A model generated the notes under the pieces. The model saw nothing but the letters and a program-made list of their open reading frames with translations. It was not told the origin of the DNA and did no database searches. The position numbers were made by a program, and so were the translations under genes. 64,000 bases of DNA from Planctomycetota bacterium (GTDB lineage Bacteria; Planctomycetota; GCA-002687715; CAIWVZ01): positions 448,001 through 512,000 of the forward strand of contig JBGANV010000004.1 in assembly GCA_044222185.1 (NCBI GenBank). Direction: 5' to 3'. Below, one piece after another: positions 1,944 to 19,706 of the stretch; within the stretch, counting starts at the first letter, position 1; each line of letters starts with the position of its first letter.

Positions 1944-3944
<2,001 letters not shown>

Positions 3945-8262: not shown

Positions 8263-8383
8263 GTCCTCGCTGGAGCGCGCTCTCACCGCTGGCCGCGCTG
8301 GCGCTGAATGCGGATTGAAGGCGCCCGCGCCGATGCCAGAATCGCCGGCCTGCAGAAGCCAAGTGCGCGACGACGGGGAGACC

Positions 8384-8575
8384 ATGGAGGTTCGATTCGA
8401 TTGCGTGTTCGAGGGGAAGAGGATCTTCCAGGTCGTCCATTCCCAGAGTGACGCGGCGCTGTTCACCGGTACCGCAGCGCAGTGCAAGCGATTCCTCGAG
8501 ATCCATCACGAGAAGGCTGATCGGGCGAGCGGGGTGAGGCGACCCGGGACATCCGATCTCTCGACGGAAGGTTGA
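8384..8575 (+). CDS. Small hypothetical protein (63 aa)
   Basis: GGGGAG RBS before ATG; globular-looking sequence MEVRFDCVFEGKRIFQVVH... Confidence 0.5.
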   Translation: MEVRFDCVFEGKRIFQVVHSQSDAALFTGTAAQCKRFLEIHHEKADRASGVRRPGTSDLSTEG

Positions 8576-8841
8576 CGAGGCAGTGCGGCGGTGCGGGCTC
8601 CGGCTGGGGCGCGCCCTCCGACAAAAGAGCCGGCGAAGTTTGTTGCGCCGCCGAAGCGGCCACTGTAGTCTCGCGCCCCGTTGCTCCGGCCCGCCGCGGG
8701 CCGCTGCGTTTGAAGAGGGATGGACCTGGGGTTCGCATCGCCGCGTTGTGGCGACCGAAATGGCGTGGCATCGCTACGTGCGGGTTTCTCGTACGGACTG
8801 GCCAAACCAGGGCTTGTCGCATTCAACCGGAGTCGATGGGA

Positions 8842-10833
8842 ATGGCTCAGCCCGTTGCGCGCCGTGCGTTCGATCGCGTGCTGGTGATCATGTTCGAGAA
8901 CCAGTATCGCGGCTACGTCCTCGCCAATGCCTACATGCGCCAGTTGGCGAAGCGCGGGATCCAGCTCGGCAACTCGTTCGGGGTGATGCACCCCTCGCAG
9001 ACGAACTACATCGCGTCGATCGCGGGCGCGCTCTGCAACGTGACGAACGACGAAGTCCCGAAGCTGCTCACGGAGAAGACGCTTGCGGACCTCGTGCACG
9101 AGGCTCCGGGACGCCTAAGGTGGAAGGCCTACATGGACAGCTACGTCCCGGAGGCCACGCCCTGGACGCCGACCTTCACGCCGCGCGACGCACCTCCGTA
9201 CTACGTCAAGCACAACCCGTTTGCCTCGTTCGCGTCGGTCGTGCGCAACGAGGCGATGTGGCGATGCATCGACAACGAAGCCGGGTTCTTCGCCGACGTG
9301 CTGAACGGAACGCTGCCCGAGTTCTCCTGGTTCTCGCCGAACATCTGGAACGATGGCCACTGGCTCGACGGCACCACCGAAGAGTCCGTCCCTCGGGCGC
9401 CGGCCCTCGTCGACCAGGCCGCTCGGTGGCTCGAACGGTTCTTCAACCGGCTGCGGTTTCCCGGCGCCGACTCCCACCTTCCACCGGGGACCCTCGTCGT
9501 CGTGACGTTCGACGAGGCCGATTTCGAGGCCGACGATCTCCCAGAGCAGGCGTCGGCCTACGACGGCCCGAATCAGATCTACACCGTGCTGCTCGGTGAT
9601 CGCATCCGCCCCGGTTTCGAAGAGGAGGGCTTCAATCACTACAGCATGCTTCGGACGATCGAGATCAACTTCGGTCTGGGGCACCTCGGCCGCAACGACG
9701 CGGGGGCGAACTGGTTTCAGTTCCTCTGGGGGCGCCGTTTTCGATGGGGCCCGAGTCGGGAAACCCCGATCCACGGCGGTGGTGGTGTCTGCGCCGCAGG
9801 GCTCGGAGCGGCGCTCTTCGTCGCTCATGTGGGGGCTGATGGGGTCGTCCGCGTGAGAACGTATGCGGATGGGGCCTGGTCGGCCGCGGAGGACGTCCCG
9901 GTCGATGGGCGCGGTGGCGTCGCCATGGCGAGTACGTTTGAGCAGGTCGTGCTCGTCGCGTGTTCGGCCGGTGGAGCCGTTCATGCGACGACCTGGGATC
10001 CGCAGCATGGTTGGTCTGCACCGTCGGCGCGGCTGGACGGGCGGCGGATCACTGGCGTCGCCGCAGCCTCGTTCGACGGCGAACGGCGGATCATGCTGGC
10101 GATGAAGGACGATGCCGGGGGCATCGAGGCTCGCACGTGGCGGGGAGGGTCCTGGGGCCCGGCGGCCCCTGTCGGAGCCGTGCGATCCGAGGGCGCGATG
10201 ACGCTTGGCGCCTTGGGCGCGTCGCTCTACCTGATCGTCTCCGTCCCCGGCGAGAAGACCCTTCAAGTCGTGTCGTACAACTCGGCGGCGTTCAACGTTG
10301 TCACGGTCGCGAAGAACCCATACGGCGGCCCACAAGACGACACGACGGTCGATGAGTGGTCACCGTGCGCGTTTCCCGTGGCGCACTTCTCTTCGTGGCC
10401 GCAGCGGAACGAGTCGCGCGCGCCAACGACGCGAGCCTATGAAGCGGGCGGTCCTCTGGCGACCGCCACGCTCGACGGCGTCCTGCATCTGGTCCATCCG
10501 GGGGCGGCGAATTCGCTTCTACTCACGGAGACGTTCTCGATCGCCGGTTTGATGACGCCCTCGCAACCGGTCTCCTACAAGAGCCGGAGCGCCGCGAATT
10601 CGAGCAACGGGTTCGGAACCCTGGCCGAGGCCGGCTGGAGCAAGCAGGCAGCCCTGTTCGGGTCGCGGTGCGGGGCACGAGGTGCACTTGCCCTCGGGCG
10701 TGCCGATGGGCAGATCGTCCTCCTCTCGCGGGCCGAGGCTGGTTCCGCGGTGGAAATCCGCGTCGGACGGTACGTCGACGACGCGCAGCCCGAGCGTGTG
10801 TACGACGGGCATCGATCGAAGGAATGCCAATGA
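8842..10833 (+). CDS. Phosphoesterase (acid phosphatase/PLC, SapM-like) with a C-terminal repeat, probably beta-propeller, region
   Basis: VIMFENQ, HPSQTNY, YYVKHNPF, NDGH, VTFDE and FNHYSMLRTIE motifs; C-term ~W-S/G repeats; GGAG RBS. Confidence 0.85.
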   Translation: MAQPVARRAFDRVLVIMFENQYRGYVLANAYMRQLAKRGIQLGNSFGVMHPSQTNYIASIAGALCNVTNDEVPKLLTEKTLADLVHEAPGRLRWKAYMDSYVPEATPWTPTFTPRDAPPYYVKHNPFASFASVVRNEAMWRCIDNEAGFFADVLNGTLPEFSWFSPNIWNDGHWLDGTTEESVPRAPALVDQAARWLERFFNRLRFPGADSHLPPGTLVVVTFDEADFEADDLPEQASAYDGPNQIYTVLLGDRIRPGFEEEGFNHYSMLRTIEINFGLGHLGRNDAGANWFQFLWGRRFRWGPSRETPIHGGGGVCAAGLGAALFVAHVGADGVVRVRTYADGAWSAAEDVPVDGRGGVAMASTFEQVVLVACSAGGAVHATTWDPQHGWSAPSARLDGRRITGVAAASFDGERRIMLAMKDDAGGIEARTWRGGSWGPAAPVGAVRSEGAMTLGALGASLYLIVSVPGEKTLQVVSYNSAAFNVVTVAKNPYGGPQDDTTVDEWSPCAFPVAHFSSWPQRNESRAPTTRAYEAGGPLATATLDGVLHLVHPGAANSLLLTETFSIAGLMTPSQPVSYKSRSAANSSNGFGTLAEAGWSKQAALFGSRCGARGALALGRADGQIVLLSRAEAGSAVEIRVGRYVDDAQPERVYDGHRSKECQ

Positions 10834-13800
10834 GCACACCAAAGCAAGGCCGAGCGGCTCGAGATCCGTTGGAGTCGGCGTCGAGGACCGCGGCAGATCT
10901 GTCCACGGAACGGGCCCGGATGACGCACGATGCGGTCTGGCGCCTGGTGCAGCGTGGGCTGGTCTATCCGTCGCCGAATGCGATCTTCATCACGTTCTTC
11001 CGCAGTCGCAAGGCGTCGCCGCTGACGAAGGGGACCCTCGGCCAGGTGGTTCGTGGAACCCGCGCGCGGATCCATGCGGACTTCGGCAAGGCTCACACGA
11101 CGGCGATCCTGGGAGTCGGTTTCGATCTCTGGCGCGAGCTCTCCGCTCGGGACGGGACGTCGGTTCCCCTCGGGATGCAGCTCCACTCCGATGGTGAGAA
11201 AGCGGGCGGGGAGTCGTCCGACGGCGTGTTCGCGCGGCCGGGGACGGTTTTCGTCGACTCTGGCGCCGACCTGTGGTTCCACGTCAAGAGCGACAACCCC
11301 AAGCATTGCCAGGGCCTTCTCGAGTACTTGCGTCACGTGCTCGAGGTCGAGCTCGCGTGCATGGACCCGGCGCGGACCGTGTGGCAGGCGGCGGCGACCA
11401 AGTCCAACGCACCGGACCATCGGGGTGGCAAGGTGTTGGGCAGCCGGTTCTCCGAGAACCTCAACAACGCGACCGATCCCATCACGATCCAGCAGCAGAC
11501 GATCGTCGGGTTCGAGGATCCGACGCACATCGGTGGATCTTTCGTGTTGGCCCAGCGATTCGTGATCAACTGGGGGCAGATCCTCGCGATGGCTCCGCAG
11601 CACGTCGAAGACCTGGTGGGGCGCTCGACGGACGACCGGCTCGTCCCGTCCCACGATGACCGGAGCCACATCAAACGCGCTCGGGCGTTCGACGAGCACG
11701 GGAACGCCATGTCGGTCCTGCGGTTGGGCCTGCCATATGGTCGCTCGTCCGCGATCGAGAGCGACGACCTGCTCGCGAAGGGCGCGAGCCGTCGCGACGA
11801 GGAAGGTCTGTACTTCGCCGGGTACGCCAAGAGCGCGGCGGCGCTCGAGCGGATCATGGAGCAGCAGATCGGCGACGTCCCAGGGTTCATGTCCGACCGC
11901 TTGCTGGGGCACGTCCGCGCCAACCTCGGTGGCTTCTACTACGTCCCGAGCCTGCCCGATCTGGGGATCGAACCCGAGTCCGCGTCGTCGTGGCGGCGGT
12001 TCCCTGGGGTCGACTGGTCACGTCTGGATCGCCACTTCGACCAGACGTCGCCCAACGGCTACATGCACTACAACCACAAGGAGTACTTGTTCCGGATGGC
12101 GACGATGACGGCCGAGGAGCGAGCGACGTTCCTCCCGCCATCGCACCGCGTGCTCACTCTGCTCGCGGGCGTGTTCTCGCGCTGGCAGGACAACTGGTAC
12201 TTCGATCGCTCCCAGAAGGAGTTCTCCCACCTCCGCGTCTACCTCGAGCGCGAAGACGGACGCGAGGTGGCCGAGAAGGTCATGAGCCTCTCGATCGCCG
12301 AGCGCGGCGGCTGGGCGACCAAGGTCCTGCTGGGGCGCGTCCTCGTCAGCGACGAGTACGGGTTCCGGGGACGACGAAAGGATGGTCGCGGGAACCTCGT
12401 CAACGGTGCGGACACCTACCGGATCCACCCCAGCGAAATCCTCGTGGGTTCCATGCCGAATCTGGGCCTCGGCCAGGGAAAGCACCTCATCGATTTCGCG
12501 CGAGAGAGCGAACGGCTCGAGAACTTCTTCGACAACCTGAGCTATGCCTCGGGCGTCGGCCACATCGTCCCGCACTATGCGACGGCGCTGCGCGTCGGGC
12601 TCGGCCGGCTGACGGCCGACGTCGCCGCGCGGCGCGATCGGGCAAAGTCCGAGAGCAAGCGGCAGTTCTACGCCGGCGCGGTCCTCGCGCTGGAGGGCGT
12701 CGCCGAGCATTGTCGTGCGTTTGCACGGCTCGCCGCCAAGATGGCGGACGGCATGGGCCCGGGGCAGTCTGCGGAGCGGAGCAACCTTCAGGAGATCCGC
12801 GACCGGATGAACCGGATCGCCGAGACGGCACCCGCGACGTTCGTCGAAGGTGCGCAGCTCCTGTTCACCCTGCACTCGTGCCTCCATCACGCGGGCGAAC
12901 CGACCGCGATCGGGCGGATCGATCAACTCCTGCATCCGCTCTACGAGGCGGACGTCCGGGCCGGGCGCATAGACGAGAGCCTTGCGCAGGAAATCATCGA
13001 CTGCTTCTGGGTCAAGGTCGGCGAGAAGGCGCAGCTCAACCGGCAGTTCGTCGAGGATCACCAGGTCTTCGGGAACATGGCCATGGGAGGGGCGTCGGGG
13101 AACTACCCCCAGGGCTCCTCGCTGAATCAGTGGATCCAACAGGTGACCGTGGGCGGGACGATCGCCGACGACACGCCCGGCGCCGGGACACCGGCCTACA
13201 ACGACATCACCTGTCTGTGCCTCCGCGCCGCGCGACGGCTGCCGCTGAATGCACCGTGCCTTTCGCTCCGGATGCGGCCGGACATGCCGCAGGAACTGCT
13301 CCGCGAGGCCGCGCTCGCCATCCTCTCGGGTGGTGCCCACCCGGTCCTCGTTTCCGATGCGAAGGTCATTCCGGGGTTGGCGCAAAGCGGCGACGACGTC
13401 GGCCGCGGCACGCACGAAACGGCGTCGACGCCAGTCGCGGAGAAGGCCGCGGGGCTCTGGAACAGCAGGGTCCGCTTGCGAGATGCGCGCGATTACGCGT
13501 GTGACGGCTGTTACGAGCCGCAACTCACCGGCACGAGTTGGTTCACGCTGGGCGGAATGCCGTCCACGCAGCCGCTCGAGGCGGCCCTCAACCAGGGAAA
13601 GACGTGGCAGAGTGCGGGCCCCGTGTGGTTCCGTGGGCAGAAGGTGTCCTTCACCTCGGAGCCGGCGCGCGACATCCCGAGCTTCGAGCGCTTGCTCGAC
13701 CTCTACATCGAGCACCTGAAGTGGATGTACGCCAAGCAGGTCGACGGGCAGCTCGGACTCTTCGGCAGGATGAACTCCGTCTGCCCCGCTCCGCTGTTGT

Positions 13801-14750
13801 CGGTGTTCATCGAAGACTGCATCGACAAGGGGCTCGACTACTATGAGGGCGGCGCCCGCTACAACGTCGTGGCTCCGTGCTTCAGCGGGCTCTCGACGCT
13901 GATCGACTCGCTTTGGGCGATCCGCGCCATGGTGTTCGACGAGCGAACGGCGACGACGTCGCTCCCCGAACTGGTGACGGCGCTGCTCTGCAACTGGGGT
14001 GAGAACATGGCGGAGCCGTTCATCAGCACGCTCGAGGGGTCGGCGCGCATCGAAGCCCGTGCCGAGCGATTCCGCCAGCTCCGCGCCGTCGCCATGGCCC
14101 AGCCGAAGTTCGGGCGCGGGAATGCAGACGTCGATCGGTTCGGCGACGCAATCGTCGGCCGCATCGCTGCGGCAGCCGTCGACGTCTTCGTGAATCCGGC
14201 CGAGCGGACCGCGGCGAAGATGCTCGGTTTCGCGCAGCGCCTCGGGACCAAGGAGATGCCGTTCGGCGGGTTCCAAATCCAACCGGGCGTGGGTTCGTTC
14301 GAGAACTACCTCGACTGGGGGAACATGTCCGGCGCCTCGGCGGACGGGCGTCGCAGCGGCGATCCGTTCGCCTCCGACATCAGCCCGGCGCCGGGCTACG
14401 GCGATCGCGCGATCGACTCGCGCGAGGCTCCGATCATCCGTGTGATGGAGGGGTACTCGGGCCCCGGCATCGAGGCGATGTGGGACGGCGCTCCTGTCGA
14501 TCTGAACATCCGAGAGGACTTCCCGCTCGAATCGCTGGTCGCAGCGCTCGGCGCCTTCGCGCAAGGACGCGGGTCGTCGTTGATGACGATCACCTGCGCG
14601 GATGCGGCGACGATGGCGCAGGCGGCGCGAGACCCGGAGAAGTACGATTTGCTCCGAGTCCGCATGGGCGGTTGGACCGAGTTCTTCGTCGTGATGTTCC
14701 CGGCGCATCAGGCCCAGCACCAACGTCGCCCCATCAGCACCGTGGAGTGA
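10830..14750 (+). CDS. DyP-type peroxidase fused to a glycyl radical enzyme (PFL-like) domain
   Basis: N-term DyP motifs DLWFHVKSD, GGSFVLAQRF, SHIKR (proximal His), LRLGLPYG, GLYFAGY, GGFYYVPS; C-term GRE motifs GHIVPHY, IGRIDQLL, AQEIIDCFWVK, YACDGCYEP, PKFGRG, GASADGR, PEKYDLLRVRMGGW. Confidence 0.88.
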   Translation: MSTPKQGRAARDPLESASRTAADLSTERARMTHDAVWRLVQRGLVYPSPNAIFITFFRSRKASPLTKGTLGQVVRGTRARIHADFGKAHTTAILGVGFDLWRELSARDGTSVPLGMQLHSDGEKAGGESSDGVFARPGTVFVDSGADLWFHVKSDNPKHCQGLLEYLRHVLEVELACMDPARTVWQAAATKSNAPDHRGGKVLGSRFSENLNNATDPITIQQQTIVGFEDPTHIGGSFVLAQRFVINWGQILAMAPQHVEDLVGRSTDDRLVPSHDDRSHIKRARAFDEHGNAMSVLRLGLPYGRSSAIESDDLLAKGASRRDEEGLYFAGYAKSAAALERIMEQQIGDVPGFMSDRLLGHVRANLGGFYYVPSLPDLGIEPESASSWRRFPGVDWSRLDRHFDQTSPNGYMHYNHKEYLFRMATMTAEERATFLPPSHRVLTLLAGVFSRWQDNWYFDRSQKEFSHLRVYLEREDGREVAEKVMSLSIAERGGWATKVLLGRVLVSDEYGFRGRRKDGRGNLVNGADTYRIHPSEILVGSMPNLGLGQGKHLIDFARESERLENFFDNLSYASGVGHIVPHYATALRVGLGRLTADVAARRDRAKSESKRQFYAGAVLALEGVAEHCRAFARLAAKMADGMGPGQSAERSNLQEIRDRMNRIAETAPATFVEGAQLLFTLHSCLHHAGEPTAIGRIDQLLHPLYEADVRAGRIDESLAQEIIDCFWVKVGEKAQLNRQFVEDHQVFGNMAMGGASGNYPQGSSLNQWIQQVTVGGTIADDTPGAGTPAYNDITCLCLRAARRLPLNAPCLSLRMRPDMPQELLREAALAILSGGAHPVLVSDAKVIPGLAQSGDDVGRGTHETASTPVAEKAAGLWNSRVRLRDARDYACDGCYEPQLTGTSWFTLGGMPSTQPLEAALNQGKTWQSAGPVWFRGQKVSFTSEPARDIPSFERLLDLYIEHLKWMYAKQVDGQLGLFGRMNSVCPAPLLSVFIEDCIDKGLDYYEGGARYNVVAPCFSGLSTLIDSLWAIRAMVFDERTATTSLPELVTALLCNWGENMAEPFISTLEGSARIEARAERFRQLRAVAMAQPKFGRGNADVDRFGDAIVGRIAAAAVDVFVNPAERTAAKMLGFAQRLGTKEMPFGGFQIQPGVGSFENYLDWGNMSGASADGRRSGDPFASDISPAPGYGDRAIDSREAPIIRVMEGYSGPGIEAMWDGAPVDLNIREDFPLESLVAALGAFAQGRGSSLMTITCADAATMAQAARDPEKYDLLRVRMGGWTEFFVVMFPAHQAQHQRRPISTVE

Positions 14751-14753
14751 GCG

Positions 14754-16154
14754 ATGACCAACAAGAACGCAGTCAGCACGTACCTCGTGGAATCAATTCC
14801 CATCGGTCTCGAGGATCTCCGTGGGACGATGGGAGTGCAGTACACCGAGGACGTCCTCGTGCGGCTGGTCCGCGGCGCGAAAGAGTCCATCGACCTCACT
14901 GCGATGTACTGGAACCTCCTGCCGGATCCGGACGGTGACGACGAGAAGGGGTTCACGGCGCAGCAATTCGACGCCATGGGCGCCGCGACCGGCCGCAACC
15001 TCTTCGAGGCCCTTCGCGACGCGGCGCGCCGCAAGGTGCGGATCCGGATCGTCGAAAGCCCAGGATTCTCGGGGAAGAGGCAGGAGTCGACCGACCTCAA
15101 GGAGGCCTTCCCAGACTGCGTGACCGTCCGCCAGATATCGATGAACGACTGGTATGGCGGCGGGATCATGCATCAGAAGATCTGGGTGTTCGATGCCTGC
15201 CACGTCTACGTCGGCTCCGCCAATATGGACTGGAAGTCCATCATGCAGGTCAAGGAGATGGGCGTCGTCGTCGAGAATTTGCCCCCGTTCGCGCAGGACG
15301 TGACCCGGTACTTCGAAGGGTGGTGGGCGTTCTGCGCGCTGAAGCCGGCCACGGCCGTCGCGTTCGATCCGAGGGCGGGTGTGGAGCGCCTGGTGCCGCC
15401 CTGGTCGGCGCTGCTCCACGAAGCCCAGCGAAAGCCATCGCCCTTCGACGACGATCGTTTTCGCTCGGACGCGAACCGCTCGAAGCCCCTGTCGGTCCCG
15501 TTGGATGGTCAGACCGCCGGCTTCTTCTTGACTGGGTCGCCCGACGAAGTGCGTGGTCGAGGCAGGACGCTCGATGCGGACGGATTGGTCTACACGATCG
15601 ACGATGCGAAGAAGTCGATCTGCGTGAGCGTGATGGACTTCGGGCCCATGAGCCTGTACTCGCGGGCGCCACTGGGGCCCGGCGCCACGCGGGGGATTCC
15701 GACGGACACTCCCGTTTGGTGGCCGCAGCTGTTCGACGCCCTCCTCTCGGCGGTCCTGACGAGGAACGTCCACGTCCGCCTCCTGGTCAGCAAGTGGGCT
15801 CACACCTCTCCACTGATCGAGCCGTTTCTCGCGGCCTTGCAGCACGCGGCGGACGCCGGCCGTGTGGATCCTCGAATGTCGAGCGGCCAGCTCGAGATCA
15901 AGCTGTTCGTCATCCCGGGCTGGGACCAGACCGCAGGGACTCACCGGCGCTACCCGGGCCACAGCCGCGTCAACCACACGAAGTACATCGTGACGGACCG
16001 GCGCATCAACATCGGGACGTCGAACATGACGTGGGACTACTTTGCGGCAACCGCCGGCGGCAGCGTGAACACGGACCACGTCGGCCTCGTGTGCAGCTTG
16101 CAGGCCGTGTTCGACCGCGACTGGGGATCGAGCTACGCGTATCGGTTGGCCTGA
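14754..16154 (+). CDS. Phospholipase D superfamily protein, PLD3/K4-like
   Basis: Two HKD motifs, HQKIWVFD..GSANMDW and NHTKYIVTD..GTSN; N-term LVESIP. Confidence 0.9.
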   Translation: MTNKNAVSTYLVESIPIGLEDLRGTMGVQYTEDVLVRLVRGAKESIDLTAMYWNLLPDPDGDDEKGFTAQQFDAMGAATGRNLFEALRDAARRKVRIRIVESPGFSGKRQESTDLKEAFPDCVTVRQISMNDWYGGGIMHQKIWVFDACHVYVGSANMDWKSIMQVKEMGVVVENLPPFAQDVTRYFEGWWAFCALKPATAVAFDPRAGVERLVPPWSALLHEAQRKPSPFDDDRFRSDANRSKPLSVPLDGQTAGFFLTGSPDEVRGRGRTLDADGLVYTIDDAKKSICVSVMDFGPMSLYSRAPLGPGATRGIPTDTPVWWPQLFDALLSAVLTRNVHVRLLVSKWAHTSPLIEPFLAALQHAADAGRVDPRMSSGQLEIKLFVIPGWDQTAGTHRRYPGHSRVNHTKYIVTDRRINIGTSNMTWDYFAATAGGSVNTDHVGLVCSLQAVFDRDWGSSYAYRLA

Positions 16155-16221
16155 ACGCGTCGCCGCACCATGGTGCGGCGTCGGAACGGCGGTCGAACCG
16201 CTGGCACAGTGAGGATGAATC

Positions 16222-18225
16222 ATGGCGAAACGAACTCAGACGCCTGGAAAGCGCAGCGGGAAGGCGAGGAGTAGGACGGCCGCCGCCACGGGCGCGCCCA
16301 GGCCTCGCTCGCAATCGGGCCACAAGCCTTGGCTGGACGTTGCCGCGCCGGCGACGCGCGCGCTGCGGATCTACACACAGGACCCGAGTGCCGGGACCTA
16401 CGTCGGCAACCTAAGCACCGTTCACGTGCCGTGGGAGGCGGTGAGGCCCGGGCCCGTCGGCTCCAAGGTCGCCGTCGTCGATTACGACGCGTCGAATCGC
16501 TGCTACTACACCCCGATCGACCTCGATCATCCCTTCGTGCTGGCTCGCGACGGCGTCGACCCCTCCGAGTCGGATCCGCGGTTCCATCAGCAGATGGTCT
16601 ACGCCGTCGCGACGCGGACCATCGAGATGTTCGAGGCCGCGCTGGGGCGGAAGATCCGATGGCGACGTGCGGATCGCTTCTCCGACAAGTCCAACGAGCA
16701 GCAGTGGCACAAGACGGACGACATCGAGGTCCTCCATCTCTACCCCCATGCGATGCAGGAGGCGAACGCCTATTACAGTCCGCAGGCCCACGGCATCCTG
16801 TTTGGATACTTCACGGCGAACACGACGCGGCAAGGGCGCAACCTGCCGGGGCAGCGGGTCTTCACGTGCCTCTCGCACGACATCATCGCCCACGAAGTGA
16901 CGCACGCGATCATCGACGGGATCCGCACGTACTTCACCGAGGCGACGAATCCGGATGTCCTTGCATTCCACGAGGGCATCGCCGATGTCGCGGCGCTGTT
17001 CGCCCATTTCACGCAACGTGATGCCTTGTTCGAGACGATCAGGAAGACGGGCGGACGCTTGTACCAGGCGGACCTGGATGCGGATGCCTGTGGCAGCGAC
17101 CGTTCCGGTCACATGATCGCGGCCCAACGTCGCGAGGTGAATCCGTTGATCCAGCTCGCGCAGCAGTTCGGGGAAGCGCGGGGCACGGGACGCGGGCTTC
17201 GTTCAGCCTTGAGCACGCCGCCGTCGCCGGACGACATCGAAAAAAAGCCGACCGAGCCGCACACGCGAGGCGCCATCCTCGTCGCGGCCGTCTTCGATGC
17301 CTTCTTCTCGGTCTACGCGCGCAAGAGCGCCGACTTGTTCCGCATCTTCCACGCTGGCGGCGGGCGCCCCGACCAGGACGAGGTGCCAGCGCCGCTCGCG
17401 GAGCAACTCGCGCGCACGGCCACGGACCTCTCCCAGCGTTTCTTCCGGCTCTGCGTCCGGGCTCTCGACTACTGTCCGCCGGTCGACATCACGTTCGGCG
17501 ACTACTTGCGCGCCCTGATCACCGTCGGCACCGAGCTTCACCCGGAGGATCCCGATCGCATCCGTGACGCGCTCATGCAGGGCTTCCGGCTGCGCGGGAT
17601 CTTCCCGGAGAGCGCGAGTTTCTTCTCCGAGGACGCGTTGCGGTGGCCCCCCATGTTGCCTGGGATGCTCCCGCCGATCGGAGCACGGACGATCGGCGAT
17701 CCGCAGACCGGACGCAGCCTCGTCACTGGGCTGGTCTTCGGCGGGCCCAACGGCCTCACGCGACGCGAGAAGGACATCAACGGCCGCGTCCTGCGGGCCT
17801 ACATGAAGGAGAACGCCGCGGCGCTGGGCCTCGATCCGAAGTTGCCGGTCTCCGTCCCCTCGTTCCATCCGATGTTTCGGTCGGGGGATGACGGACGGAC
17901 CCGCGCCGAGATGGTGGTCGAGGTCGTGCAGCTGAGACGGGCGCCGTTCGATCCGGCGGTGACCGGGGTTGGGGAGTTCCCATTCCGCGGAGGCGCGACT
18001 GTGATCATTTCGGCACCGGAGGTTGCGCCTGATTCCTCGGGAAGCCTCACGGCGAAGGACCCGGAGATCCGCTTCGTGATCGGGAAACCGATTTCTGGGC
18101 CGGGAGGTGTCCAGCGCGAGTCCGCTCAGCGGCACTTCACGCTGTCCCTGGGCCTCGCGCAGGGGCACTGTGACGATGCCCGGCACTTCCAGGTGAACTT
18201 CGCATTGTTGCATGGAGACGGCTGA
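16222..18225 (+). CDS. Gluzincin-type (M4-like) metallopeptidase
   Basis: NAYYS, DIIAHEVTHA (HExxH), FHEGIAD third ligand, EPH. Confidence 0.8.
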   Translation: MAKRTQTPGKRSGKARSRTAAATGAPRPRSQSGHKPWLDVAAPATRALRIYTQDPSAGTYVGNLSTVHVPWEAVRPGPVGSKVAVVDYDASNRCYYTPIDLDHPFVLARDGVDPSESDPRFHQQMVYAVATRTIEMFEAALGRKIRWRRADRFSDKSNEQQWHKTDDIEVLHLYPHAMQEANAYYSPQAHGILFGYFTANTTRQGRNLPGQRVFTCLSHDIIAHEVTHAIIDGIRTYFTEATNPDVLAFHEGIADVAALFAHFTQRDALFETIRKTGGRLYQADLDADACGSDRSGHMIAAQRREVNPLIQLAQQFGEARGTGRGLRSALSTPPSPDDIEKKPTEPHTRGAILVAAVFDAFFSVYARKSADLFRIFHAGGGRPDQDEVPAPLAEQLARTATDLSQRFFRLCVRALDYCPPVDITFGDYLRALITVGTELHPEDPDRIRDALMQGFRLRGIFPESASFFSEDALRWPPMLPGMLPPIGARTIGDPQTGRSLVTGLVFGGPNGLTRREKDINGRVLRAYMKENAAALGLDPKLPVSVPSFHPMFRSGDDGRTRAEMVVEVVQLRRAPFDPAVTGVGEFPFRGGATVIISAPEVAPDSSGSLTAKDPEIRFVIGKPISGPGGVQRESAQRHFTLSLGLAQGHCDDARHFQVNFALLHGDG

Positions 18226-18227
18226 AC

Positions 18228-19706
18228 ATGGCGACGCGAAAGACCCGTTCCTCTTTGAAGTCGCCGGCCACGAAAAAGCCGGCCTCGTCCCCGCGCGCAC
18301 CGCGCAGGACGGGCGCGAAGGCTGCGGCTCGTGGACCCGGTCGCAAGGTGAGCTCGGCGCGCGGTTCCGTCCGCGTGCGCATGTACCGCGTCGGGTTCGG
18401 CGACTTCTTCCTCTTGACGGTGCCGGGCAACGACGGGCCGGCGCACATCCTTATCGACTGCGGCGTTCACGCCGCGAACATCGGGACGATGGACGCATGC
18501 GTCAAGGACCTCGTGAAGGCTACGGGCAACAAGCTCGCGCTGGTGATCGTCACGCACTACCACGCCGATCACATCTCGGGTTTCGCATCGAACTACGATG
18601 ATTTCGCGAAGTTCGATCACATCGGCGCCGTTTGGATCACCAATCGGCTCGACCCGAGCGACACCGGCAAGTCGAAGTTCCTCGCGCAACTGACGTCCGT
18701 GGCGCAGCAGTTGCAACTGCACCTGGGCGTGAGAGACGACGACGCGGCCGTCGAGGCGCGGTCCAAGGTCGAGAACGCGCTTGGTGTGGCCGCAGGTGGA
18801 GGGTCGAACGCCAAGGCGCTCCAACTCCTGCGGAGCGGCTTCAAATCCAAACCTCCCGTGCACTACTACCAGGGAGGGGACACCCCGTACCTGCCGCCGG
18901 AGCTCGATGGCGCGATCGAGGCCGAGATCCTCGCTCCATCGCCGAAGGACTCCGGTGGCGAGTTTGCTGCGAGCGACAACAAGACGGAGCAATATCTCGC
19001 GGCGGTCGGCGCCGACGGGCTCGAGGATCAGACTCGCGTGCAGCCGTTCGAGAAGGACTGGCCCGCGACGGCCGCGTCCTATCCTCCTGAGGCCTTCGAC
19101 GAGTTCGACTCGGGAATGGTCCGCGGGAGCAAGGCCCGGAACGCGGACGGTGCGCGTGCGATGGAGTCGTTGCTCGAGACGATGCAGCCGGACGTGCTCG
19201 CGGCCACCGCCGACAAGCTCGATGGCACACTGAACAACCAGAGCCTCGTCGTCCTATTCACGTGCCAGGGCAAGAAGCTTCTTTTCGTGGGCGACGCGCA
19301 GTGGGGCAACTGGGCCTACTGGCTCTACGGCAAGGCTGTCACAGGCAAAGACCCGGGAATCACCGACCGCGCGAAGCAGATCCTCGGCTCCATCGATTTC
19401 TACAAGGTGGGGCACCACGGCAGCACGAATGCGACGCCGATCCCGGCCGTCGCGGCCTTGAACAGCAGCTGCGCAGCCATGTGCTCGACGGCAACCGGCG
19501 CCTACGGTGATTCCAAGAAAGGCACGGAGGTCCCGCGCACCGTCCTGATCGAGAGCCTGGAGAAACAGCTGAAGAATCGACTCGTCCGCAGTGACTGGGT
19601 TGCCGCCTCCGGCGTCAAACCCGATCCGGAAGCGCTCGAAGAGATCCGGACGCTTCCCACCGGGTTTTCGACGCCCGGCGACCTGTACATCGACTTCACG
19701 CTCTGA
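18228..19706 (+). CDS. Metallo-beta-lactamase-fold hydrolase (ComEC-like)
   Basis: VGFGD, LIDCG, THYHADH, NNQSLV, LFVGDA and KVGHHGSTN motifs. Confidence 0.87.
   Translation: MATRKTRSSLKSPATKKPASSPRAPRRTGAKAAARGPGRKVSSARGSVRVRMYRVGFGDFFLLTVPGNDGPAHILIDCGVHAANIGTMDACVKDLVKATGNKLALVIVTHYHADHISGFASNYDDFAKFDHIGAVWITNRLDPSDTGKSKFLAQLTSVAQQLQLHLGVRDDDAAVEARSKVENALGVAAGGGSNAKALQLLRSGFKSKPPVHYYQGGDTPYLPPELDGAIEAEILAPSPKDSGGEFAASDNKTEQYLAAVGADGLEDQTRVQPFEKDWPATAASYPPEAFDEFDSGMVRGSKARNADGARAMESLLETMQPDVLAATADKLDGTLNNQSLVVLFTCQGKKLLFVGDAQWGNWAYWLYGKAVTGKDPGITDRAKQILGSIDFYKVGHHGSTNATPIPAVAALNSSCAAMCSTATGAYGDSKKGTEVPRTVLIESLEKQLKNRLVRSDWVAASGVKPDPEALEEIRTLPTGFSTPGDLYIDFTL

Follow-up and report, generated by a model that had tools for sequence, protein, structure and literature searches.

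What could bring a heme peroxidase fused to a glycyl radical enzyme (GRE) together with a phosphoesterase, a phosphodiesterase, a metallopeptidase and an MBL-fold hydrolase? The question is raised by five genes of a Planctomycetota bacterium (assembly GCA_044222185.1, contig JBGANV010000004.1), which lie on the + strand of a stretch of 64,000 nucleotides that we call the window and in whose coordinates positions are given unless a locus number or accession precedes them. The genes are g1, a phosphoesterase (8842-10833, 663 amino acids; an in-frame ATG at 8836 would add 2), g2, a DyP-GRE fusion (10830-14750, 1306 amino acids), g3, a PLD3/PLD4-like phosphodiesterase (14754-16154, 466 amino acids), g4, an M4/M36-like metallopeptidase (16222-18225, 667 amino acids), and g5, a ComEC/LmuA-type MBL-fold hydrolase (18228-19706, 492 amino acids). 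The arrangement given in a first-pass annotation of this DNA was reproduced exactly, with five co-oriented genes and junctions of -4 (ATGA), +3, +67 and +2 nucleotides at g1|g2, g2|g3, g3|g4 and g4|g5, and from these junctions alone we infer that the five are co-transcribed. Our answer is that the locus is a real, rare and horizontally moved cassette, the strongest feature of which is a missing radical-SAM activase, a point that the annotation did not stress. Tentatively, and with a little less than even confidence, we read it as a horizontally mobile cassette for conflict or stress that has at its centre an enzyme of the glycyl radical family coupled to heme and needing no activase.

Evidence for a cassette came from a scan for other carriers of the DyP-GRE gene in which one genome was taken per species. 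This returned 44 other loci in 43 genomes, giving 44 carrier genomes when the present one (G000) is counted. The order g1 to g5 recurred at 3 of the 44 loci, each in a different phylum, namely in an Acidobacteriaceae genome (L001, where g1 is cut by the contig end), in a Myxococcales genome (L016) and in Reyranella (L018). The first-pass annotation had named as its refuting case that the five genes never co-occur elsewhere; they do co-occur, and the same gene order in other phyla indicates that the arrangement is beyond chance. Partial cassettes were seen as g1-g2-g3 (L015), g1-g2 (L017) and g2-g3 (L002). The seven DyP-GREs linked to a PLD3-like gene form a single clade that spans five phyla (SH 100; all trees were made with FastTree and carry neither bootstrap nor clade tests), from which we conclude that the cassette arose a single time and was then passed on sideways. 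It is also modular, as sub-modules occur apart, and the expectation that the five genes travel together thus held for one DyP-GRE clade but not for the modules in general. The G017 genome has the cassette split over two sites, with g3-g4-g5 on another contig and both g4 and g5 frameshifted. On the conjugative Bradyrhizobium plasmid NZ_CP088023.1, g3-g4-g5 come after 40 codons left over from the C-terminal end of g2, with 81-93% identity. This frameshifted 3'-end remnant (L090:14823-14941) lies directly 5' of the PLD3-M4-MBL genes and marks a deletion scar. A GMC oxidoreductase cluster now stands upstream of it; replacement of the DyP-GRE by the GMC oxidoreductase is ruled out by the remnant.

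The DyP-GRE gene itself is rare. It was not found in any of 40 relatives of this genome, and in other genome samples, centre genomes included, it was present in 3 of 121, 2 of 301 and 1 of 251 (the phylum search around G039 covered just 2 genomes). Viral contigs yielded one DyP-GRE locus and no g4. A search for DyP-GRE homologs gave 523 matches, and Corallococcus is among the carriers. In myxobacteria, actinomycetes and cyanobacteria the gene is mostly found by itself.

The central gene, g2, begins with a predicted DyP heme domain (amino acids 41-376; 10950-11957, + strand) that has proximal His280, distal Arg298, Glu209 and Glu324, and continues into a GRE barrel (amino acids ~430-1306; 12117-14750, + strand) with His578, the loop Asp892-Gly-Cys894-Tyr-Glu896 and a Gly loop, RVRMG-Gly1281-Trp. 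The first part scored above the cut-off of TIGR01413 and the second matched PF02901 (E 2e-101). Among 114 aligned homologs, His280 and Glu324 were present in all and Arg298 in 110, while Glu209, which replaces the Asp of GXXDG, was kept in 110 and was His in the other four; on the GRE side H578, D892, G893, C894, E896, R1276, R1278, G1280, G1281 and W1282 were found in 114 of 114. The DyP domain has its fold match in DtpB/DypB (Z 22), and the barrel resembles diol dehydratases and CutC (Z 32.6-32.7; for 1r8w, Z 32.7 and rmsd 2.8 with 710 residues aligned) more than pyruvate formate-lyase (PFL; Z 24.6). An AlphaFold model of amino acids 107-1306 (pLDDT 89.7) has a pTM of 0.92, which suggests that the two domains would pack rigidly. 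When the DyP domain with linker and heme was modelled in complex with a C-terminal Gly-loop piece the score was 0.01, the fold of the partner being uncertain.

By its barrel, Cys finger and Gly loop g2 belongs to the GRE superfamily. Its DyP domain stands N-terminal to PF02901 in one open reading frame and keeps the His, Arg and Glu of DyP subclass P2, and g2 is accordingly classed with the published DyP-PFL fusions as a predicted heme peroxidase. Assignment as a pyruvate formate-lyase was rejected, as the D-G-C-Y-E loop lacks a Cys-Cys pair and TIGR01255 scored 22.9 against a cut-off of 994 bits. We noted a distant DyP-GRE clade (L038, L039, L041, L042) with His in place of Asp/Glu at the distal heme position. 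Homologs were also putatively assigned to a fern, a brittle star, a choanoflagellate, a mussel and Pelomyxa (P0079, P0119, P0254, P0260, P0267); the choanoflagellate copy (P0254) is fused to a C2 domain, the mussel copy to a C-type lectin and the Pelomyxa copy to DUF2278.

To our knowledge, all characterised GREs require an oxygen-sensitive radical-SAM activase and anoxia. The activases are normally cognate and adjacent. The activase profile TIGR02494 had no match in 34 of the 44 carrier genomes, this genome and the closed chromosomes G005, G007, G019 and G040 included; in G007 an NrdG-like gene below cut-off is all that was found, and NrdD is absent. Ten carriers did give a match, above cut-off in seven, and in six of these seven the activase lies beside a separate canonical GRE, the seventh (G030) having a PflA-like gene without a visible partner. 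Directly beside the DyP-GRE an activase gene was found at none of 44 loci. Searches of the present genome, which is 93.8% complete, gave no match to TIGR02494, TIGR02491, TIGR04041, PF01228, NrdG, NrdD or YjjW-type profiles and only below-cut-off matches to TIGR02495 and NrdG2; it does contain other radical-SAM genes (5 weak Fer4_12 matches).

As a control we used a profile of 24 stand-alone GRE relatives of the DGCWE/RMGGW group, which matched 7 of 301 genomes of the same phylum. At the best 6 of these 7 sister loci an activase-like gene lay directly downstream in every case and no DyP was present; one of the six activases scored above the TIGR02494 cut-off and one is partial at a contig end. 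Other neighbours of the sister GREs (L084-L089) include class V aminotransferase and mandelate-racemase-like genes. The pairing of these sisters with activases makes Gly1281 a credible radical site and indicates that the DyP branch lost its activase. Three kinds of link between a DyP and this GRE lineage were seen: the P2 fusion, a second fusion on a sister branch (P0298, P0308) that carries another DyP type with intact GXXDG, and a DyP encoded by its own gene immediately downstream of the GRE (L044, L075, L077). The sister branch also has seven unfused members. The FastTree tree and the different DyP type suggest that the second fusion arose independently.

The four partners could likewise be assigned, and the domain calls of the first-pass annotation were borne out for all five genes by profile, PDB-sequence and fold matches. 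All five predicted enzymes keep their catalytic residues. The g1 protein matches PF04185 (E 7e-16) over an acid phosphatase/PLC superfamily domain (amino acids 33-279), with E19 N20, H50 S52, H124, D171 H173, D224 and H266 identical in 5 of 5 homologs. Its C-terminal repeat domain reached 0.82 to PLL-type propellers in the ESM Atlas, under the Atlas reliability mark, and is possibly a PLL-like lectin propeller, which we take as a lead only. The closest solved relative of g3 is human PLD3, matched over the full length (E 1.6e-56), followed by PLD4 (E 1.5e-49) and the poxvirus nicking-joining enzyme (E 1.2e-46). With both HxK motifs in place (H140/K142, H408/K410), g3 is predicted to be a soluble PLD3/PLD4-like phosphodiesterase. 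No Pfam family, M4/M36 included, was matched by the sequence of g4, and PDB sequence searches with g1, g4 and g5 returned nothing meaningful. The g4 protein has an H224-E225-x-x-H228 motif and E251 invariant in 81 aligned sequences, and its structure model (pLDDT 83, pTM 0.85) was matched by Foldseek to M36 7qfy (E 8e-6) and thermolysin (E 6e-5), with an extra C-terminal beta domain; by HExxH, downstream Glu and thermolysin-like fold it is a cytoplasmic M4/M36-like gluzincin metallopeptidase. The g5 protein matches MBL PF00753 and bears H110-x-H112-x-D114-H115, D356 and KVGHHGS, motifs conserved across 13 aligned homologs (H115 in 12). In PADLOC it gave partial, below-cut-off matches to LmuA (E 4e-20) and Avs1a (E 1e-9). 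As previously noted for this DNA, no signal peptide is evident in the five proteins: a simple hydropathy scan, with no trained predictor, showed no N-terminal hydrophobic stretch, membrane segment or Tat motif.

The last two genes have a life of their own. Homologs of g4 number at least 8000 (all 8000 candidates scored). Eight of 250 other genomes of the phylum contain g4, and in seven of the eight g5 adjoins it, the eighth g4 being at a contig end; g1 to g3 were not found in the fetched regions of these eight genomes. A metagenome scan with g4 recovered 8 distant loci, 4 of them with the g4-g5 pair. Of 32 plasmid records with g4, four were examined and in all four an MBL gene adjoins. In one of these (L093; NZ_CP048285.1, 7968-11452) the pair sits between a CBASS-plus-patatin cluster and Hachiman, at two others it comes after an integrase with patatin/ThiF or AAA/JAB genes, and on the fourth, the Bradyrhizobium plasmid, it has S8, patatin, PLD and CHAT genes nearby. 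The M4-like peptidase and MBL pair (L091, L092, L093) is thus a widespread, apparently unnamed stand-alone module in defence islands and a candidate anti-phage system; no named system in PADLOC 2.0 or NCBIfam matches it. The peptidase also occurs in tandem duplicate (P0154, P0155 and others) and fused to S8 (L070).

These observations lend some weight to the idea that the cassette is a stack of passengers, in which g4-g5, a defence module complete in itself, became inserted next to g1-g2-g3 on one occasion and the two halves, though functionally unlinked, have moved together from then on. The pair occurs without g1 to g3 in 7 of 8 own-phylum, 4 of 8 metagenome and 3 of 4 examined plasmid loci, the g4 family is very large, the largest gap (+67) falls exactly at g3|g4, G015 and G002 lack g4, and the cassette has one origin. 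We nevertheless consider this explanation rather unlikely. At L002 an unrelated S8 protease and MBL occupy the position equivalent to that of M4 and MBL here, L077 has an MBL gene in a split GRE-DyP-HAD operon, and g3 has remained with g4-g5 both in G017 and on the Bradyrhizobium plasmid.

Where other DyP-GREs have operonic partners, these usually repeat the PLD/phosphatase theme with members of other families. Nuc-like PLDs, which form a second PLD family, were seen near the DyP-GRE in L002, L012, L039, L041, L044 and L075, and HAD-motif proteins in L039, L041, L044, L075 and L077 (the motif was recognized by eye; that of L075 is annotated). A Caulobacterales operon (L044:815-11596) combines the GRE and DyP with a cytidine deaminase, a HAD-motif protein, a PLD, an EEP nuclease and a PtuB-PtuA fusion of the PtuAB type, and in Longimicrobium (L012:7621-17800) a PLD and the DyP-GRE lie directly upstream of CBASS with HORMA and AAA genes, so that both operons adjoin defence genes. 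DUF2278 adjoins the DyP-GRE in two plasmid loci and is fused to it in one protein. At two loci (L010:5466-13849; L013:5439-13819) the DyP-GRE start lies within a 4-nucleotide overlap with a gene for a single-chain protein like xanthine dehydrogenase, which is a possible source of peroxide.

Could the same partners serve a food pathway? Inference A of the first-pass annotation was metabolic, with PLD and the phosphoesterase releasing a phospholipid head group (choline, ethanolamine or glycerol) for cleavage by an eliminase-type GRE. In the form weighed here, the compound released could be a lipid head group or a polyol, and its conversion would serve catabolism or detoxification. The proximity of the g2 fold to diol dehydratases and CutC would agree with this, as would the alignment of His578, Cys894 and Glu896 with glycerol dehydratase His164, Cys433 and Glu435, the recurrence of PLD and phosphatase partners, the eukaryotic homolog with a C2 domain and, if purines were degraded, the two xanthine dehydrogenase overlaps. 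The substrate residues tell otherwise. In pairwise sequence alignment, on which these residue comparisons rest, g2 has His578, Phe905 and Gly909 at the choline Asp, Thr502 and Tyr of CutC (148 against a cut-off of 1050 bits), and it keeps 3 of 6 glycerol/propanediol dehydratase residues, His281, Asp447 and Tyr640 being replaced by Glu690, Thr906 and Gly1155, so that neither assignment was accepted. The roles of the compared residues (His164, His281, Cys433, Glu435, Asp447, Tyr640, Thr502) are those that we take them to have in the two enzymes. All GRE equivalog scores of g2 were far under cut-off, genes for a transporter or an aldehyde/alcohol dehydrogenase are lacking from the cassette, 37 of the 43 other carriers lack a PLD3-like gene, the distribution is patchy with cyanobacteria included, and g4-g5 are left unexplained. 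The metabolic proposal is thereby weakened and we regard it as improbable.

A fusion of this kind has been described before. The accessible text of PMC5041501 (2016) reports a DyP-PFL fusion in Chaetomium, terms its significance elusive, indicates a putative PFL activase and records that the homolog was induced 18.5-fold by peracetic acid, a response that fits the conflict or stress reading. The accessible text of PMC9719856 names subclass P2, allows the distal Asp-to-Glu change in it and suggests a protective role for the DyP, which would guard PFL and its activase against H2O2. That the DyP merely shields an ordinary GRE while a distant or unrecognised radical-SAM activase installs the radical under anoxia, as proposed in that portion of PMC9719856 and in keeping with the Chaetomium activase, the Gly loop shared with activase-paired relatives, the other radical-SAM genes and incompleteness of this genome and the 10 of 44 carriers with some activase match, appears improbable to us as well, given the 34 carriers without a TIGR02494 match, four closed chromosomes among them, the lone NrdG-like gene of G007 and the contrast between an adjacent activase in 6 of 6 sister loci and in none of 44 DyP-GRE loci.

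We return therefore to the conflict or stress cassette. Its gene company suggests a weapon of defence or stress rather than a food pathway, and it could work in three steps. In the first, which we give about an even chance, peroxide would oxidise the DyP heme and the oxidising equivalent would travel along Trp/Tyr residues as far as Gly1281/Cys894, a hypothetical relay that would take the place of the radical-SAM activase. The residues W248, W452, W456, Y457, W1056 and W1282 are invariant and would be candidates for it. Class I ribonucleotide reductase offers an analogy, the same barrel being supplied there by a cofactor that lies apart from it. In the second step, held a shade less firmly, the PLD3-like enzyme would cut phosphodiesters and the phosphoesterase strip the phosphate to release a vicinal-diol substrate, from which the His578/Cys894/Glu896 site would eliminate a hydroxyl, destroying the substrate or making a reactive carbonyl. 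Nucleosides from degraded nucleic acid would be favoured over lipid-derived glycerol, since the deaminase, EEP and PLD3 company makes a nucleoside likelier than a lipid head group. In the third, which may equally be right or wrong, the M4-like protease and MBL would form a protease-gated effector arm, cleavage activating the MBL. The net effect would be damage to nucleic acid or membranes upon infection or oxidative attack. The first-pass annotation had offered conflict or stress as its inference B; this gained support from g4-g5 in plasmid defence islands and from DyP-GRE operons beside CBASS or a Septu-type fusion, but not from the window itself, which is no defence island, or from a match to any named system.

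Several observations weigh against this explanation. At 38 of the 44 loci the four partners are absent within up to 10 kb (several contigs being short), and whole-genome searches found a close g3 in 6 and g1 in 5 of 43 carrier genomes; the partners are hence dispensable for most DyP-GREs. The cassette has broken at g1|g2 (L002), g2|g3 (G017) and g3|g4 (G015, G002). As the seven cassette loci fall in one clade they represent a single origin and not seven independent associations, so that the recurrences are not independent. The flanks of the window are housekeeping, and a PADLOC scan of 24 flanking open reading frames gave one partial match, to a methyltransferase domain, which places this copy outside any recognisable defence island. 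Trp1282/RMGGW is not a peroxidase adaptation, the same loop being present in activase-paired sister GREs, and at L014 PFL and PflA lie 5-8 kb from the DyP-GRE. Among the carriers are Scalindua and Desulfobacca, which we take to be anaerobes; in their clade the distal residue is His. Finally, none of the partner folds is specific to nucleic acids, each being active on lipids too.

The surroundings of the cassette are as follows. On the 5' side are pilin-like and HD-GYP genes, and on the 3' side ECF sigma, TPR, HEAT and photolyase genes. A small unannotated open reading frame of 70 amino acids, without a Pfam match, lies between the HD-GYP gene and the cassette (8363-8575). The upstream gap is 266 nucleotides to this frame or 579 to the HD-GYP gene, and the downstream gap is 261-330 depending on the choice of ECF sigma start, in agreement with the flanking gaps of ~270-330 nucleotides reported earlier. 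Cassette GC is 65-67%, with similar flanks, and g1 to g5 are each single-copy in the 7.08 Mb genome. A scan of the locus revealed no promoter-like site, and terminator-like sites were at chance level (6 versus 5.7 in shuffles). A near-perfect inverted repeat, spotted by eye at 16161-16189 in the 67-nucleotide g3|g4 gap, may form a hairpin with a regulatory role where the two modules meet. Elsewhere in the window (1944-3944) is a protein of the aconitase family in which the large subunit is preceded, in the same chain, by the small one.

A bolder proposal, which we think unlikely, is that g2 founds a class of GREs started by their own heme and peroxide in place of a radical-SAM activase, usable in air and deployed as an immune effector. 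Nucleases and phosphatases would supply nucleosides (or glycerol), g2 would dehydrate them to dead-end or toxic products, and the protease-MBL arm would be the trigger or a second effector. If this were true, the lectin-fused mussel and C2-fused choanoflagellate copies would be eukaryotic versions of the same idea, and the exchange of activase for heme peroxidase, apparently made more than once, would open GRE chemistry to aerobes and biocatalysis. In the literature searched, the cassette provides the first gene-context clues to the substrate and role of DyP-PFL. New here are the cassette with its modularity and deletion scar, the sister-clade control, the repeated DyP-GRE coupling and the recurring PLD, phosphatase and protease-MBL partners. 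Searches of the open literature, with most subscription journals and the supplements of defence screens left out, turned up nothing on the cassette, on activation without an activase or on the M4-MBL pair.

How does the cassette compare with known systems? Its combination of genes matched no named system in PADLOC, as the first-pass annotation had supposed. In class I ribonucleotide reductase, and in cyclooxygenase and other heme dioxygenases, a protein radical is made by an oxygen-compatible cofactor and then passed on to the catalytic site; the likeness of g2 to these is a functional analogy only, with no sequence evidence of membership. PLD3/PLD4 and the poxvirus K4-type nicking-joining enzyme share with g3 a full-length match and both HxK motifs, but g3 is bacterial, without a membrane anchor and operonic, and its nuclease or lipid activity is putative. 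AVAST type 1 (Avs1a/Avs1b), Lamassu LmuA-MBL and 6A-MBL resemble g4-g5 in having a protease beside a ComEC-type MBL, with partial profile matches, whereas g4 is an M4/M36-like gluzincin and Avs1a scored 45.7 against 420 bits; with the MBL below cut-offs and no STAND/SMC ATPase among the five genes, the cassette was not assigned to any of these. Nor was it assigned to DISARM (DrmC 47.5 versus 133 bits; DrmA/B and the methylase not among the 24 flanking open reading frames). Eliminase-type GREs (propanediol/glycerol dehydratase, CutC, HypD) have, like g2, a ten-stranded barrel, a Cys-X-Glu finger and a C-terminal Gly loop, and g2 shares the His at the glycerol dehydratase His164 position. It differs from them in its low identity (about 20-24%), replaced substrate residues, invariant Asp892, lack of a PF01228 match and of an adjacent activase, and fused peroxidase. 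Closest are the DyP-PFL proteins of subclass P2, with which g2 shares the N-terminal class P DyP, the distal Asp-to-Glu change, the fused PF02901 and a patchy bacterial and eukaryotic spread. The DyP-PFL papers, in their accessible text, treat the C-terminal part as a PFL that needs PFL-AE and give no gene context; unlike that published view, g2 has a single Cys in its Cys-X-Glu loop, its kind mostly occurs with no activase, and it is accompanied by four co-mobile partners.

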